6,609 nucleotides of DNA from a virus. Lineage: Duplodnaviria; Heunggongvirae; Uroviricota; Caudoviricetes. The stretch lies in IMG/VR virus record IMGVR_UViG_3300018483_000003, positions 1 through 6,609 of that record. The stretch is one strand, 5' to 3'. Position numbers and translations under genes: made by a program. Each line of letters begins with the position of its first letter. The first letter of the stretch is position 1. This document shows, one piece after another, positions 6 to 5,321 of the stretch. The notes below the pieces were generated by a model. It searched no databases. It was given only the letters and a program-made list of their open reading frames with translations, and was not told the origin of the DNA.

Positions 6-31
6 AAAAATAAAGGCCGACTATGCGGCCT
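6..31 (-). terminator. Putative intrinsic terminator downstream of the 100-aa membrane-protein gene
   Basis: Plus-strand GGCCG (15-19) and CGGCC (26-30) form a 5-bp GC stem with a 6-nt loop. On the minus-strand transcript the hairpin is followed by TTATTTTT (complement of plus 6-13). It lies about 68 nt past the ORF stop at 99. Confidence 0.4.
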
Positions 32-98: not shown

Positions 99-401
99 TC
101 AGTCGAAATAATTGAAGAAAACAACAATAGAAGTAATCGCTATTCCTGATGTGACAAGTAGTGATAAAAGAACAATATCTTCATCATCTCCTTTATTCAA
201 TGCAAAAATCATCAGATAAACACACGCTATAATCACCAATACACAGATAGCCTGAATTCCAGCTGATGATACGGCGTGCCACATCAAAAGCTGATGGATG
301 ACATCAGGAATCTGTGCCTGGCTAAATGAAACAGCCGCGTCTATTCCATTACTGGCTTTTTGCAGTAGTTCTACGAGAATCTTGTTTGCTTGTTCTTCCA
401 T
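99..401 (-). CDS. Hypothetical small membrane protein (100 aa, two predicted transmembrane helices)
   Basis: ATG at 401-399 is preceded by GAGGTG (complement of 406-411) at 4-nt spacing. The protein has a hydrophilic N-terminal ~40 aa, then hydrophobic segments VSSAGIQAICVLVIIACVYLMIFAL and LLSLLVTSGIAITSIVVFF separated by the acidic loop NKGDDEDIV. AT-rich relative to the rest of the window by eye. No family recognised. Confidence 0.6.
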   Translation of the reverse strand: MEEQANKILVELLQKASNGIDAAVSFSQAQIPDVIHQLLMWHAVSSAGIQAICVLVIIACVYLMIFALNKGDDEDIVLLSLLVTSGIAITSIVVFFNYFD

Positions 402-511
402 ATCTCACCTCAAATAAGTGGTTTGCTGCCTAATTTCATTTTCTGGCGACCAACACAAGTCACACCCATTTCACTGCGTGGCTTGCTGTAATAAATTCGG
501 TTAGTTCAGAC

Positions 512-534
512 AATAAAAAACCCACCGAAGTGGG
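512..534 (-). terminator. Intrinsic terminator immediately after the 112-aa ORF
   Basis: Minus-strand transcript reads CCCAC-UUCG-GUGGG (plus 521-534), a 5-bp GC stem with a UUCG tetraloop, followed directly by UUUUUUAUUG (complement of plus 511-520). The hairpin abuts the TAG stop at 537-535. Confidence 0.6.
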
Positions 535-873
535 CTATGACCATTTTTTATTTGGATTTCGTTGGTGAGCATGATTAACAACTCTGTGCATTACATCCTC
601 ATATTTTTCATCTTCAATTTTTTCGACATCGCGAGGAAATGGTGTTGCTAATGCTTTGTCAACTTTATCCATTGGGTCTTCATTAATCTTATATTCAGGA
701 CCGTCATCTATAGCATTAAATCCAGGTGTTACACCGTTTTTTAATGCATATGCTATCCTCTTTTCCCATCTCGCTATTCTCCTCCTGTCTCGAGATGTAA
801 GACCTCTATCAGATACTTTTCTGTTTTGTCCGCGGTCAGGATTAACATAAATAGTCTTTTTCACCATAAGCAT
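535..873 (-). CDS. Hypothetical highly charged protein (112 aa from ATG 873; 114 aa if the TTG at 879 is used)
   Basis: ORF in the six-frame track. The ATG at 873-871 lies 2 nt after the N stop codon (TGA, 878-876), suggesting translational coupling; no strong SD. Product is rich in R/K/D/E and I recognise no family. AT-rich, and followed directly by a terminator. Confidence 0.55.
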   Translation of the reverse strand: MLMVKKTIYVNPDRGQNRKVSDRGLTSRDRRRIARWEKRIAYALKNGVTPGFNAIDDGPEYKINEDPMDKVDKALATPFPRDVEKIEDEKYEDVMHRVVNHAHQRNPNKKWS

Positions 874-875
874 AC

Positions 876-1181
876 TCAATAAGCACCGTACGGTAGTTTA
901 CTGTACAATTTTATTTTTTGGACTGCATGTATTTTGTTTCCTAATGGGTTTGAATCCTTGTAATAAATACTTCTATTTTTTCGAACGACTTCTTCTTTCT
1001 TCTTGCAGCAAAGGCTTCCTAGTGAAGCTGCTTTGTCTGCTCTGACGCAACCAGAGAGCTTTAGCGCAATTTTTCGCGCTAGTGCTTCATTACTGCGTCG
1101 CTCGGCAATAAGTTCTGCTCTGCGAGCTTTGTAGCGGCTTTTTGCCGTACCTTTGGATTCTTTCCAGACAATGGTTACCAT
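876..1181 (-). CDS. N: N-type transcription antitermination protein (phage-21-like arginine-rich motif)
   Basis: ATG at 1181-1179 with AAGGAG (complement of 1188-1193) 6 nt upstream. The N-terminus MVTIVWKESKGTAKSRYKARRAELIAERR contains the arginine-rich motif I recall for phage 21 N. The gene lies downstream of boxA/boxB elements and a pL-like promoter. The track ORF extends to 1211 but the longer start lacks an RBS. Confidence 0.8.
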   Translation of the reverse strand: MVTIVWKESKGTAKSRYKARRAELIAERRSNEALARKIALKLSGCVRADKAASLGSLCCKKKEEVVRKNRSIYYKDSNPLGNKIHAVQKIKLYSKLPYGAY

Positions 1182-1291
1182 GATGGTCTCCTTTAAGTGG
1201 CTTTGGCGCATGACGCGTCGAGGTGCTTATCTTCTCGATCGCTGTCTTGCAGCTGCAATTCGCGCCATCCCCAAAACCACTCAAGTTCTGG

Positions 1292-1331
1292 TCTCAACGG
1301 TTAGGTTGAGAGTCCGTTGATGTTAAAGAGC
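1292..1331 (-). promoter_or_regulatory. nutL: boxA (1323-1331) and boxB hairpin (1292-1311)
   Basis: Minus-strand RNA reads GCUCUUUAA (boxA consensus CGCUCUUUA), then UCUCAAC-CUAACC-GUUGAGA, a perfect 7-bp stem with a 6-nt loop. It sits in the N leader between the pL-like promoter and the N start. The same boxA and loop recur at nutR. Confidence 0.7.
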
Positions 1332-1373
1332 CTGCCAATCTGTTCCGTTTGGCTTCCAGCGTCCTGCTGATGG

Positions 1374-1407
1374 CTTAAATTTAAGACTTCTTAATTTATT
1401 GGTCAAG
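1374..1407 (-). promoter_or_regulatory. pL-like promoter with overlapping repressor operator (oL)
   Basis: Minus-strand -35 TTGACC (complement of 1401-1406), 17-bp spacer, -10 TAAATT (complement of 1378-1383). An 18-bp operator ATTTAAGACTTCTTAATT (1379-1396) overlaps the -10 and spacer and matches the oR sites. Confidence 0.55.
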
Positions 1408-1471
1408 TGCATTTTTGAAGAAAACTTAATTTTATGGGCGTGAATTTAGTTTGTCTTTGATTTTTAACGGG

Positions 1472-1497
1472 AAATAAAAAAGGGGCGAAAGCCCCTT
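1472..1497 (-). terminator. Intrinsic terminator overlapping the cI stop codon
   Basis: Stem 1480-1486 (AAGGGGC) pairs with 1491-1497 (GCCCCTT) around a GAAA loop. On the minus strand it is followed by UUUUUAUUU (complement of plus 1471-1479). It lies at the end of cI (stop 1498-1496) and would insulate pL/oL from pRM/pRE transcription. Confidence 0.65.
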
Positions 1498-2146
1498 AAG
1501 GAAGGTTTGCTAGCTTGGCATCAACGACAACGCCAATGATTTTACAGTTCCCATTGATTTCAATCATTGGGTATTGTGGATTGAGTGGTTTCAGGAATTT
1601 TCTACCGGCATCAATAACTAACTTTTTGAATGTCGCCTCGTTTTCTCCTTCAAGTTTGGCGACTACCAGCTTTCCATTACGTGGTTCGACTTCTGGGTCG
1701 ACGAGAATAATCATCCCCTCAGGAATACTCAGTCCTGCCGGGGCAGTCATTGAATCGCCTTTAACGTCGAGCCAAAAAGAGTCTTCAGAACAATCTACCG
1801 TTGTGTCGTACCAGTTATCTATTGCACGCCTATGATATGGCTCTACAGCTTCCATCCAACATCCTGCGCTTACCCAACTAATTAGAGGATACGAACCTCT
1901 TGGATCATGCCTGCTGTGATAGGCAATGTTTGAAAGACTATCCTCTCCTTTCAACAGGTAATCAGGGGAGCACTGCAAAGCCTTGGCTAAGGCCAATAGG
2001 TTTTCGCCATTGGGCTCAGTTTCAGATCGCTCCCATTGGGAAATAGCAACATTAGACACGCCAACCATCTTGCCAAGGGCAGCCTGCCTAATCTTGAGTT
2101 CTTTTCTGCGAGCGCGAATACGCTCACCCATCAGTTGTGTATTCAT
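1496..2146 (-). CDS. cI: CI-type prophage repressor (HTH_XRE N-terminal domain plus LexA/S24-like autocleavage domain; P22 C2-like)
   Basis: 216-aa ORF. HTH motif QAALGKMVGVSNVAISQWE; C-terminal domain with an Ala-Gly cleavage site (VSAGCW), catalytic Ser in GDSM and Lys in KLVVAK. Nearly identical, from memory, to the P22 C2 repressor. Divergent from cro across an operator region. Confidence 0.9.
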   Translation of the reverse strand: MNTQLMGERIRARRKELKIRQAALGKMVGVSNVAISQWERSETEPNGENLLALAKALQCSPDYLLKGEDSLSNIAYHSRHDPRGSYPLISWVSAGCWMEAVEPYHRRAIDNWYDTTVDCSEDSFWLDVKGDSMTAPAGLSIPEGMIILVDPEVEPRNGKLVVAKLEGENEATFKKLVIDAGRKFLKPLNPQYPMIEINGNCKIIGVVVDAKLANLP

Positions 2147-2212
2147 AGTTAAGACATCTTAAATAAACTTGACTTAAGATTCCTTTGGTGGATAATTTAA
2201 GTGTTCTTTAAT
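2147..2212. promoter_or_regulatory. oR region: three repressor operators with pR (rightward) and a pRM-like leftward promoter
   Basis: Three 18-bp sites of form A-TTAAG-N4-CTT-A-T: 2147-2164 AGTTAAGACATCTTAAAT, 2172-2189 ACTTAAGATTCCTTTGGT (weaker second half), and 2195-2212 ATTTAAGTGTTCTTTAAT. Centres are 25 and 23 bp apart. pR has -35 TTGACT (2169-2174) and -10 GATAAT (2191-2196), with cro ATG at 2227. The cI ATG at 2146 abuts the leftmost operator with no SD. Confidence 0.75.
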
Positions 2213-2226
2213 TTCGGAGCGAGTCT

Positions 2227-2412
2227 ATGTACAAAAAAGATGTTATTGACCACTTCGGAACCCAGCGTGCTGTTGCTAAAGCACTAGGCATTAGCGATGC
2301 AGCAGTCTCTCAGTGGAAAGAAGTTATCCCAGAGAAAGACGCCTATCGATTGGAAATCGTTACAGCTGGCGCCCTGAAGTATCAAGAAAGTGCTTACCGC
2401 CAAGCGGCATAA
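2227..2412 (+). CDS. cro: Cro repressor (61 aa, P22-Cro-like HTH protein)
   Basis: ATG at 2227 with GGAG (2216-2219) upstream. HTH motif QRAVAKALGISDAAVSQW. The sequence matches, from memory, P22 Cro almost exactly. First gene rightward of pR. Confidence 0.9.
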   Translation: MYKKDVIDHFGTQRAVAKALGISDAAVSQWKEVIPEKDAYRLEIVTAGALKYQESAYRQAA

Positions 2413-2419
2413 GCAAATT

Positions 2420-2459
2420 GCTCTTTAACAGTTCTGGCCTTTCACCTCTAACCGGGTGA
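2420..2459 (+). promoter_or_regulatory. nutR: boxA (2420-2428) and boxB hairpin (2442-2459)
   Basis: boxA GCTCTTTAA is identical to the nutL copy. boxB is UCACCU-CUAACC-GGGUGA, a 6-bp stem (one G-U pair) with the same CUAACC loop as nutL. It lies between the cro stop (2412) and cII. Confidence 0.7.
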
Positions 2460-2509
2460 GCAAACATCAGCGGCAAATCCATTGGGTGTGCCGCTATAAC
2501 TCAATATCA

Positions 2510-2550
2510 ATATAGGAAAATTAACAAATGGCACAAGCAAGCTACAGCAA
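2510..2550 (-). promoter_or_regulatory. pRE-like CII-activated promoter (TTGC-N6-TTGC motif inside the cII 5' end)
   Basis: Plus strand has GCAA(2537-2540)-N6-GCAA(2547-2550), which is TTGC-N6-TTGC on the minus strand, the CII tetramer site architecture of lambda pRE. A -10-like TATATT follows on the minus strand (about 2512-2517). The position overlapping the cII start matches lambda. Confidence 0.55.
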
Positions 2551-2824
2551 GCCAACACAGCGAGAAATTGATCGCGCTGAAACTGATTTACTCATCAACC
2601 TGTCAACGCTTACCCAGCGCGGTCTGGCAAAGATGATTGGCTGTCATGAATCGAAGATAAGCAGAACGGACTGGAGATTTATTGCTTCGGTTCTGTGTGC
2701 TTTCGGAATGGCATCAGACATCAGTCCGATTAGCAGGGCTTTTAAGTATGCGCTTGATGGACTCACAAAGAAAAAATCCCCGGCTGCCACCGAGGATTCT
2801 GAGCAAATTGATATGCAATTCTGA
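2528..2824 (+). CDS. cII: CII-like transcriptional activator (98 aa)
   Basis: Sits between nutR and the replication genes. The C-terminus KKKSPAATEDSEQIDMQF resembles the lambda CII C-terminus as I recall it (KKRPAATERSEQIQMEF). The central region is HTH-like and the pRE motif is embedded in its 5' end. Confidence 0.75.
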   Translation: MAQASYSKPTQREIDRAETDLLINLSTLTQRGLAKMIGCHESKISRTDWRFIASVLCAFGMASDISPISRAFKYALDGLTKKKSPAATEDSEQIDMQF

Positions 2825-2856
2825 GGTAATTACTGGATCAATCCACAGGAGTAATT

Positions 2857-3003
2857 ATGACAAAACAACTCAGTCCTTACCAGGACAAAATTCACAAACA
2901 CATACTACGTGATCGCTTCCTGTCCAGCTTCAAGCAGCCTGGTCGATTTCGGGCTGAGTTGGAAAAGGTGAAGCTGATGCAGAAGGAGAAAGGTCATGAG
3001 TAA
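2857..3003 (+). CDS. Possible small basic protein (48 aa) between cII and the O-like gene
   Basis: ATG at 2857 with GGAG (2848-2851) 5 nt upstream. Product [48 protein letters not shown]. Its stop (3001-3003) overlaps the O-like start (2996) as ATGAGTAA. Not in the supplied track because of its length. I recall an orf48 annotated at this position in P22, which if correct supports it. Confidence 0.4.
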
Positions 3004-3895
3004 CATATCTAATCTAGCCGAAGCCAGAGAGGCCAGAAGGCTACAACAACCGCATCAAAGCAGCGGTAAGGGGTATGCCTTGCTGCACCGTAAAATTATG
3101 GATGTGCCGTTTTACAAGGACGCAGAAGCAGCGCATCTGTGGGTTCACTTAATCCTCAAAGCAAAGCATACGCCTGAGTATGTAATGACTGACGCAGGAG
3201 AAATTCTGGTAGGCAGAGGGAAGCTACTTGGCGGTAGAAACTCTCTGGCGTTTGAAACAGGACTCAAACCAGATCGCGTTCAGTACCTGCTTAGAAAGTT
3301 CAAAAAACTCGGCATGATTGACTGGGTTTCACACGGTAAATTCTCAGTTTTCTCGGTAGAGAAATATGACGATTATCAGTCAAATTTTGTACCAGCAGAT
3401 TACCAGCAAATTACCACCTCAAAGCCAGCAATACCAATGCCTGCAAGCAATACTGTACCAGCAGATTACCAGCAAATTACCACAGATAAAGAATATAATA
3501 ATATTATCTCTAATACTGACGTATTAGAGAGTGCCACAGCAGACAAAAAGTCTGACAAGAAAAAACCTTCCGTTAGCTGTCAGGATGTTGTCGATGCTTA
3601 CCACGAAATCCTTCCTGAAGCGCCAAGAATCCGCGCACTGAATGACAAGCGTAAAAACCAGATCCGAACGTTCTGGCGCAAAGCCGGAGTGATAACCCGC
3701 CAGCTTGACGGGCATGGGTTCACGATGCAGGACTGGAGAAATTATTTGAGCTACGTAGGCGAAAATTGCCGATGGATGTTCGAAGAGCGCCCAAACCATC
3801 AACGCGGAACCGTCTGGCACAAAAAGGGATTTGATTTCCTGCTTAACGACAATACCTACCTGAAAGTTCGTGAGGGTGAACACGATGACCGATAA
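2996..3895 (+). CDS. Replication initiation protein (lambda O / P22 gp18 analogue) with DnaT-like C-terminal domain
   Basis: 299-aa ORF with AAGGAG (2983-2988) 7 nt upstream. It occupies the O position directly upstream of a DnaB-family helicase and contains internal iterons plus an AT-rich tract. The C-terminal region ([17 protein letters not shown]...WRKAGV) resembles DnaT/primosomal-type loader domains as far as I can recall. Confidence 0.8.
3389..3530. repeat. Iteron-like direct repeats plus AT-rich tract inside the O-like gene (putative ori)
   Basis: An identical 29-bp sequence GTACCAGCAGATTACCAGCAAATTACCAC occurs at 3389-3417 and 3455-3483. Each copy holds three TACCA(G/C) motifs at 11-bp phasing (3390, 3401, 3412 and 3456, 3467, 3478). 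An AT-rich tract follows at 3484-3530 (GATAAAGAATATAATAATATTATCTCTAATACTGACGTATTAGAG). Confidence 0.6.
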
Positions 3896-5321
3896 TTTTT
3901 ATGCGCCGCCCCATAGCATCGAGGCAGAGCAGGCGGTGATTGGTGGATTGCTTCTGGATGATGACAGCAGTGAGCGCGTCCAGAAAGTTCTGGCGATGCT
4001 GAAGCCTGATTCATTTTACGGCCGACCACACAAAATCCTTTTCGAAGAAATAACCAGAATGCACCGGGAGCAAAAGCCAGTAGATGGCCTGACGCTTTTC
4101 GATGAACTGGAGCGTAAATCGTTAACGGCGTCTGTTGGCGGTTTTGCTTATATCGCTGAGATCGCAAAAAACACGCCAAGCGCAGCAAACATCGTTGCCT
4201 ATGCAATGCAGGTTCGTGAAACCGCAATGGAACGCTACGCCATAAACCGCATGACTGAAGCGACGGAATTGCTCTATTCCCGCAACGGAATGACTGCAAC
4301 GCAGAAGTACGAAGCTATTCAGGCGATTTTCACGCAACTGACAGACCATGCAAAAACCGGATCGCGTCGCGGCCTTCGCTCATTTGGTGAGGTCATGGAA
4401 GACTGGGTTAGCGACCTTGAGAAGCGATTTGACCCGTCAGGCGAACAACGAGGAATGAGCACGGGGATCCCATCGCTGGACAGGATGCTGTCACCGAAAG
4501 GTCTGGTGAAAGGCTCTCTGTTTGTCATTGGCGCTCGCCCTAAGATGGGGAAAACGACGCTATACAGCCAGATGGCAATCAACTGTGCAGTGCATGAGAA
4601 AAAGCCTGCTCTGATGTTCAGCCTTGAAATGCCAGGTGACCAGATACTGGAAAAACTGGTAGGGCAGAAGTCAGGTGTTAACCCGAATATTTTTTACCTT
4701 CCGGCGACAAATGACGCTGATGACGGCTATCAGGGTGATTACGATGGTGACTTCAACAGGGCGATCGAAACAGCCAATCGCTTGAGTGAAATCGACATGC
4801 TTTACATCGACGACACGCCGGGATTATCTCTGGCTCAAATCGTCAGCGAAAGCCGTCGAATCAAGCGAGAAAAAGGATGTGTTGGCATGATTCTGGTCGA
4901 TTACCTGACACTAATGACCGCTGAAAAGGCCGATCGCAACGACCTTGCTTACGGCATGATCACCAAAGGACTGAAGAACCTTGCCAAAGAGCTTGATTGC
5001 GTTGTTGTGCTTCTGACGCAGCTTAACCGCGCATTGGAAAGCCGAACCAATAAACGCCCATTACCAAGTGACTCGCGAGATACAGGGCAGATTGAACAGG
5101 ATTGCGATTATTGGGTTGGGATCCATCGGGAAGGTGCTTTTGATGACAGCGTTCCTCCTGGTGAAACCGAACTAATCCTTCGCCTCAATCGTCATGGCAA
5201 TACCGGCACGGTGTATTGCATACAGGCAAATGGCGCTATTTATGACACAGACCAACAGTCTGCTGAAATGCGCCGCCGTGAACGCGAGGAACCGCAGTCC
5301 AAGAAGAAAGGAGGATTCTGA
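3885..5321 (+). CDS. DnaB-family replicative DNA helicase (478 aa)
   Basis: ATG at 3885 with GAGGGTG (3872-3878) upstream, overlapping the O-like stop by 11 nt. N-terminal DnaB signature PHSIEAEQAVIGGLLLD, Walker A GARPKMGKTT and Walker B-like MILVDYLTLM. GTG codons at 3870 and 3876 are possible alternative starts. Confidence 0.9.
   Translation: MTDNFYAPPHSIEAEQAVIGGLLLDDDSSERVQKVLAMLKPDSFYGRPHKILFEEITRMHREQKPVDGLTLFDELERKSLTASVGGFAYIAEIAKNTPSAANIVAYAMQVRETAMERYAINRMTEATELLYSRNGMTATQKYEAIQAIFTQLTDHAKTGSRRGLRSFGEVMEDWVSDLEKRFDPSGEQRGMSTGIPSLDRMLSPKGLVKGSLFVIGARPKMGKTTLYSQMAINCAVHEKKPALMFSLEMPGDQILEKLVGQKSGVNPNIFYLPATNDADDGYQGDYDGDFNRAIETANRLSEIDMLYIDDTPGLSLAQIVSESRRIKREKGCVGMILVDYLTLMTAEKADRNDLAYGMITKGLKNLAKELDCVVVLLTQLNRALESRTNKRPLPSDSRDTGQIEQDCDYWVGIHREGAFDDSVPPGETELILRLNRHGNTGTVYCIQANGAIYDTDQQSAEMRRREREEPQSKKKGGF

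Follow-up and report, generated by a model that had tools for sequence, protein, structure and literature searches.

A very probable HK022-type nun gene adjoining the antiterminator gene N of an imm21-type lambdoid prophage

The stretch of viral DNA analysed here (6,609 nucleotides, in the following the window) represents the immunity and early region of a lambdoid phage, of the imm21/P22-c2 type. The minus strand carries, in this order, cI (LexA-like repressor), pL, nutL, N and nun; beyond cI follow cro and cII, then the genes of an O-like initiator and of a DnaB-like helicase, and ninB. The coordinates and the basis of each assignment are summarized in Table 1. A strong terminator was predicted 3' of cI by the terminator scan. 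The nun gene is promoter-proximal in the pL operon and adjoins the immunity region, as is the case for HK022 nun. The arginine-rich motif of the N protein (GTAKSRYKARRAELIAERR) is that of phage 21 N; over its length, the protein is 99% identical to N of phage mEp235 and 80% identical to N of phage 21, with the differences mostly in the C-terminal part. A 30-bp direct repeat (3388-3417 and 3454-3483), which encodes the same run of 10 amino acids twice, lies within the O-like replication gene and is found in HK022 and mEp235 too; presumably, these are iteron-like origin repeats.

Table 1. Features of the immunity and early region, with positions in the window
Feature	Position	Strand	Basis or remark
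Two-TM ORF, 100 aa, two hydrophobic segments	99-401	-	begins 9 nt past the orphan N stop; Shine-Dalgarno GAGGTGAG
Orphan, untranslated phage-21-type N 3' end (...IYYSKPRSEMGVTCVGRQKMKLGSKPLI*)	~410-496	-	3' of the nun terminator
10-bp direct repeat TGTAATAAAT, left copy	487-496	.	overlapping BLAST segments against phage 21; alignment
Intrinsic terminator of nun	512-536	-	AGCCCAC-TTCG-GTGGGTT plus TTTTATTGTC at 536-519, overlaps the TAG stop; terminator scan
nun coding sequence	535-867	-	110 codons plus TAG stop 537-535
Stretch 5' of nun common to HK022 and HK75 (~118 bp)	874-993	-	candidate site of constitutive nun promoter(s)
Diverged N 3' end, ~26 codons	876-958	-	travels with nun
Antiterminator gene N, phage-21 type, 101 aa	876-1181	-	start ATG 1181, stop TGA 878-876; PHROG 271, E 4.6e-31
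10-bp direct repeat TGTAATAAAT, right copy	959-968	.	within N, reads as codons I-Y-Y (minus strand)
nutL boxB, phage-21 type (UCUCAACCUAACCGUUGAGA)	1292-1311	-	phage 21 annotation transferred at 97.9% homology; hairpin fold
boxA GCTCTTTA of nutL	1324-1331	-	coordinates from phage 21 annotation
pL (TTGACC-17-TAAATT)	1378-1406	-	promoter scan; agrees with the phage 21 annotation of the pL start and OL operators
LexA-like repressor gene (cI)	1496-2146	-	ORF listing
cro	2227-2412	+	
nutR boxB, phage-21 type (CACCUCUAACCGGGUG)	2442-2459	+	phage 21 annotation, homology, hairpin fold
cII	2528-2824		
Genes for O-like initiator, DnaB-like helicase, ninB			3' of cII

The minus-strand ORF at 535-879 reads as 114 amino acids from a TTG (879) and as 112 amino acids from an ATG (873-871) to the TAG stop, the latter being the 112-aa protein of a preliminary description made from the sequence alone. 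That description placed the start 2 nt after the N stop, which is correct for ATG 873, but a second in-frame ATG (867-865; MVKK...), 8 nt past the N stop, is probably the true start, because the 109-residue protein in PDB 6ALG begins with VKK and the HK022 record annotates MVKK; a weak GAG is the only Shine-Dalgarno sequence 5' of ATG 867. The protein was described as charged and the gene as AT-richer than the flanking phage core, and both statements agree with our data: the protein, as read from its sequence, is rich in arginine towards its N-terminus and acidic in its centre, and the GC content of nun is 36.9%, compared with 41.5% for N, 45.9% for cI, 46.8% for cro, 50.5% for the helicase gene and 45.3% for the window.

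The two further statements of the preliminary description, that the protein belongs to no recognisable family and is uncharacterised, had to be abandoned. The product is identical to Nun in chain N of PDB 6ALG at 108 of 109 residues (E 2.5e-71), and the sole difference (Ser11 to Arg) lies outside both functional regions. Its arginine-rich motif (ARM; DRGLTSRDRRRIARWEKRIAYALKNG) is identical at 26 of 26 positions to the peptide in chain B of 1HJI; HK022 Nun is thus represented by an NMR structure (ARM on lambda boxB) and by a cryo-EM structure (6ALG; C-terminus in RNA polymerase). PHROG 5632 ("Nun-like transcription termination factor") was matched over positions 1-112 of 112 (E 4.5e-71) and is the only weighty PHROG match of the ORF. 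Scans of Pfam, NCBIfam and PADLOC yielded no matching model, and the identification came from PHROGs and the PDB only. With tblastn, nun was found in 30 phage records, at 99.1% identity in HK022, O276, mEp235, mEpX1 and Kapi1 and at 100% in PDP110P1; the group with 94-100% identity comprises HK022, its hybrid O276, HK75, mEp235, mEpX1, Kapi1, PA28, Stx1a-converting phages and PDP110P1, and one distant copy is that of Hafnia phage Pocitis76. In the mEp235 record (GenBank JQ182731), "transcription termination factor Nun" is annotated directly after "antitermination protein N". In all likelihood, the ORF is nun, for a transcription arrest and superinfection-exclusion factor of the HK022 type, carried by an imm21/N21-type lambdoid prophage.

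Nun of HK022 is a prophage factor that blocks superinfection by lambda: its ARM binds nascent lambda nut RNA at boxB, for which it competes with lambda N, its action is stimulated by NusA and NusB as well as NusE and NusG, and its C-terminus wedges into RNA polymerase and blocks translocation, with the arrested complex being freed by Mfd (Kang et al. 2017, eLife; Biomolecules 2015 review). When overproduced, Nun arrests the polymerase without nut as well (Kang et al. 2017; Biomolecules 2015 review). Beyond lambda exclusion no function of Nun is known, and HK022 mutants in nun show normal growth and lysogeny (Gottesman-lab Biomolecules 2015 review). The arrest determinants (H93, H98, H100, R102, K106, K107, W108) lie within residues 87-109, and all residues tested by Kang et al. 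2017 (H93, R94, N97, H98, H100, R102, K106, K107 and W108) are kept in the window, in the segment ...MHRVVNHAHQRNPNKKWS of the C-terminal tail (HAHQRNPNKKWS), which is identical to that of HK022; this segment is also the best-conserved part of the Nun family, down to 41% overall identity. Given the 99% identity to HK022 Nun, the ARM of the protein in the window would bind lambda boxB, and its C-terminal tail would arrest RNA polymerase; its activity in arrest and exclusion is predicted on the same grounds. A superinfecting lambda-type phage would then be unable to express its early operons because Nun would arrest its transcription, and Mfd would release the Nun-arrested complex.

Lambda N (Pfam PF11438 N36 / PF25694) shares with Nun the lambda-boxB-binding ARM and the dependence on Nus factors, but the outcome is antitermination for N and arrest for Nun, and in Nun an unrelated VVNHAHQRNPNKKWS module replaces the C-terminal RNA polymerase-binding region of lambda N. 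A lambda N-type antiterminator was considered as an identity for the ORF and rejected; only the front half aligns, the C-terminal region of N is missing, and Pfam gave no N match.

The UUCG-tetraloop terminator that had been described right after the nun stop was recovered by scan and by folding, and overlaps the TAG stop. Its core (CCCAC-UUCG-GUGGG-U6) folds into a 7-bp stem with a UUCG loop (centroid -10.3 kcal/mol); terminator-like sites in the region numbered 9, against 1.9 expected from shuffles. At the same place, HK022 carries CCCGC-UCAG-GCGGG, i.e. a compensatory pair in the stem relative to CCCAC/GTGGG of the window, and a UCAG instead of a UUCG loop. The hairpin is intact in the window, mEp235 and HK022, and degraded in HK75 and PA28; universal conservation of the terminator was therefore rejected, and the module does not require it.

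As to expression, the preliminary description had nun expressed with N from pL and translationally coupled to N. Transcription from pL stands for lytic growth, but Nun of HK022 works from the repressed prophage, at about 100 nM according to King et al. (2000) as cited by Kang et al. In HK022 and HK75, nun is expressed without an upstream N, so that coupling to N is dispensable; as a necessary feature it was discarded, also because PA28 has lost the N stop. HK022 is homologous to the window over 518-993 (96.4%), and the ~118 bp 5' of nun are near-identical in the window, HK022, HK75 and PA28; in HK022 and HK75 there is no coding constraint on these ~118 bp, because both are without an N gene. 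The constitutive promoter of nun probably lies in these ~118 bp, which in the window are embedded in the 3' end of N. A consensus sigma-70 promoter was found neither by the built-in promoter scan in 874-1000(-) nor by a relaxed -35/-10 scan (860-1200(-)); the best -10 candidates 5' of nun are TAAAAT (913-908) and TAAACT (900-895), each with a poor -35 box. In the X16093 and HK75 records, annotation covers pL, operators and put sites, and no nun promoter.

In the prophage, one or several weak constitutive promoters within the ~118 bp would transcribe nun, and the lysogen would make a low level of Nun; no other early gene would be switched on, because the UUCG terminator would stop the nun transcript. 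After induction, nun would also be transcribed from pL together with N, and polymerase modified by N should pass the nun terminator and enter the downstream genes, by the logic of lambda tL1. The lack of a detectable consensus promoter 5' of nun, the strong terminator after cI and the weak Shine-Dalgarno sequence before ATG 867 would also suit a nun gene that is an inactive hitch-hiker here, i.e. intact but not expressed, the promoter context of HK022 having been lost. This we consider very unlikely, since the 118 bp upstream are at least 96% identical to those of HK022 and HK75, where nun is expressed, since the ORF is intact in 219 complete E. coli genomes, nearly all with at least 94% DNA identity, and since pL would transcribe nun anyway.

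The presumed target of Nun is not represented in the window. Both boxB elements, of nutL and of nutR, were predicted by folding to have a stem unlike that of lambda and a 6-nt loop, and lambda boxB (GCCCTGAARAAGGGC) had no match in the window at up to three mismatches. With nut sites of the phage-21 type and no lambda boxB in the window, the phage's own N-dependent transcription should be spared. Nun should thus be aimed at a heterotypic class of nut sites, with the resident N21 serving the phage's own sites. According to Robert et al. 1987, Nun is reported to spare, or not to bind, phage-21 nut sites (boxB).

Hafnia phage Pocitis76 (OL512804, 2240-2767) encodes an 88-aa Nun homologue (41% identity) 3 nt past its own N. 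This homologue combines a lambda-N-type ARM (MDAQARRREKRK...; Pfam N36, 37 bits compared with a cut-off of 25) with the conserved C-terminal tail of Nun, and the adjoining N of Pocitis76 has a different ARM; the same architecture as in the Pocitis76 homologue is seen in protein cluster P0022. Judged by these motifs, the pair of N and Nun-like protein in Pocitis76 is an example of the same predicted heterotypic logic as in the window. A literature search for the co-occurrence of N and Nun (mEp235, mEpX1, Kapi1) gave incidental mentions only.

It could be argued that Nun is directed at the transcripts of its own phage, where it would antagonise N in order to tune read-through from pL and pR or to silence the prophage, with exclusion of lambda being secondary or absent; nun lies 2-8 nt past N in one operon, the tandem is present in 213 of the 220 nun-bearing genomes described below, and overproduced Nun does not depend on nut. 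Such a role is, however, extremely unlikely in view of the phage-21-type boxB elements with their different stem and 6-nt loop and no lambda-like boxB, of a Nun ARM identical to the one solved on lambda boxB, and of the lambda-N-type ARM of the Pocitis76 protein next to an N with a different ARM.

The assignment as an HK022-type exclusion factor was also compared with the other genes known from this position. The genes sieB, ral, kil and cIII share with nun the genomic neighbourhood and are likewise accessory and mosaic, but have no sequence relationship to it. By record annotations, SieB is an abortive-infection protein of the membrane, Ral is a modulator of restriction, and Kil and CIII have FtsZ and FtsH as their targets; Nun, unlike these, is a soluble factor that binds RNA and RNA polymerase. 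Homology of nun to ral, sieB, kil or cIII was rejected, as the PHROG and Pfam scans gave only Nun and PADLOC gave nothing. Of the earlier proposal for this position, the part concerning accessory cargo or an exclusion gene in the pL-proximal slot holds, but no evidence supports a role in anti-defence, anti-restriction or host takeover, and the 2015 review knows only lambda exclusion. An uncharacterised factor with such a role, made only with N from pL in lytic growth, would fit a slot that holds ral in phage 21 and CUS-3 and sieB plus ral in lambda, as well as an AT-rich cargo gene without a Pfam, NCBIfam or PADLOC model that PGAP names "hypothetical protein" or "transcriptional regulator", but this reading has a negligible probability and is effectively refuted by the 108 of 109 residues shared with a protein of different, defined function and solved structures, by Nun being the sole weighty PHROG match, and by the normal lytic growth and lysogenisation of nun mutants, with no other Nun function known (Biomolecules 2015 review).

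Compared with HK022 (Nun: 6ALG chain N, 1HJI chain B; DNA: X16093 / AF069308), the window has the identical ARM and C-terminal arrest segment, and in both, nun heads the pL operon and has a hairpin terminator in the corresponding position; HK022 differs in having no N gene, in using put RNA, and in an IS903 element 3' of nun, and the window differs in having a complete N21-type gene 5' of nun. The arrangement of N followed by nun within a few nt is shared with mEp235, mEpX1, vB_EcoP_Kapi1, PA28 and Stx1a-converting phages. In mEp235, which is 99.1% identical over window positions 409-4500, the gene past the orphan N 3' end encodes a hypothetical protein of 207 aa, compared with the 100-aa two-TM ORF in the window. 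PA28 differs by the loss of the N stop and by its degraded terminator: in PA28 (KP682381, 1595-2339) and in Stx1a phages, the stop of N is lost through a 1-nt deletion close to the end of the gene, and N as annotated continues for 32 nt into nun, in a different frame.

Among 5426 complete E. coli genomes, 220 carry nun, always on the chromosome, and 213 contain the whole configuration of N, nun and N remnant; some part of window positions 410-1181 (the N21-type gene or its 3' end) is present in 1540 of the 5426. Hence, nun is accessory cargo. Of the features of a moron, an own terminator, a low GC content, and presence or absence with sharp boundaries at a 10-bp repeat relative to phage 21 are seen; for an own promoter, both scans gave no consensus match.

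These boundaries are defined by BLAST against phage 21 (OL657228), which matches window positions 959-2864 and 390-502 (the latter with 95.6% identity to the 3' end of phage 21 N) and is without the stretch between. The two matched segments overlap in the 10-bp direct repeat TGTAATAAAT, the ATTTATTACA repeat of the cassette junctions. Relative to phage 21, the window thus contains a cassette of ~470 bp, in which nun and its terminator follow an alternative, diverged N 3' end (...IYYKDSNPLGNKIHAVQKIKLYSKLPYGAY), and the phage-21-type N 3' end is left as an orphan on its far side; in other E. coli genomes, this 410-496 stretch is annotated as "antitermination protein N". In HK022 (AF069308, 2381-2506), ~118 bp of an N21-type 3' end are kept 5' of nun, in which the N stop TGA has become TGG. 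The retention of this N 3' end with TGG suggests that HK022 descends from an ancestor with N and nun through loss of N.

The front half of Nun is homologous to lambda N (window 538-867(-) compared with lambda N at 1841-2161). Residues ~23-74 of Nun align with residues 1-53 of lambda N, i.e. with the ARM and the NusA-binding region (family profile, hhalign probability 96.3%, E 1.7e-9). For single proteins, the identity to lambda N is 50% over 52 residues in Pocitis76 (E 4e-15) and 29% in the window (E 7e-4). Nun looks like a derivative of a lambda-type N in which the C-terminal antitermination region was swapped for an arrest module. The family is small, with only 22 clusters among the 5.8 billion proteins searched; in all full-length members M[HNY]RVVNHAHQR..KKW is kept, and the ARM varies.

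From these comparisons we derive a tentative scheme, which we would sooner doubt than assert: Nun proteins may form a small family that can be retargeted and that arose from a lambda-type N, in which the tandem of N and nun is the ancestral and majority arrangement and the resident N always uses a different boxB class; HK022 would be a derived N deletion, and the cassette would move by recombination in the 3' end of N, with the orphan N 3' end and the 10-bp repeat as its traces. In a bolder version of the scheme, the orphan would be the relic of a second copy of N that gave rise to nun.

For discovery, the locus means little, since the gene, its mechanism and the N-nun arrangement are already on record in the literature and in GenBank. 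It does reveal an annotation gap: ~4% of complete E. coli genomes, many of them with O26, O157 and Stx1a prophages, carry nun under uninformative names. RefSeq uses "hypothetical protein" or "transcriptional regulator" for nun because there is no Pfam, NCBIfam or PADLOC model, and surveys of prophage defence will miss Nun for the same reason; this also explains why the family went unrecognised from the sequence alone. The N-like front half, the chimera in Hafnia phage Pocitis76 and the cassette boundaries within N provide a picture of a rival's antiterminator turned into a weapon; the same three observations constitute a natural test set for changing the specificity of Nun.

Two minor features flank nun. 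A palindrome, GTACGGTAGTTTACTGTAC then AATTTTATTT, at 888-906(+), inside the 3' end of N and just 5' of nun, scores as terminator-like on the strand antisense to N and nun. On the other side, the 100-aa two-TM ORF (99-401(-)), with a terminator-like hairpin at 14-31(-), had no Pfam, NCBIfam or PADLOC match and matched the first 72 positions only of the 137 of PHROG 3054 (unknown function). This ORF sits in the ral/sieB slot, in which mEp235, phage 21 and strain SC418 have another gene.
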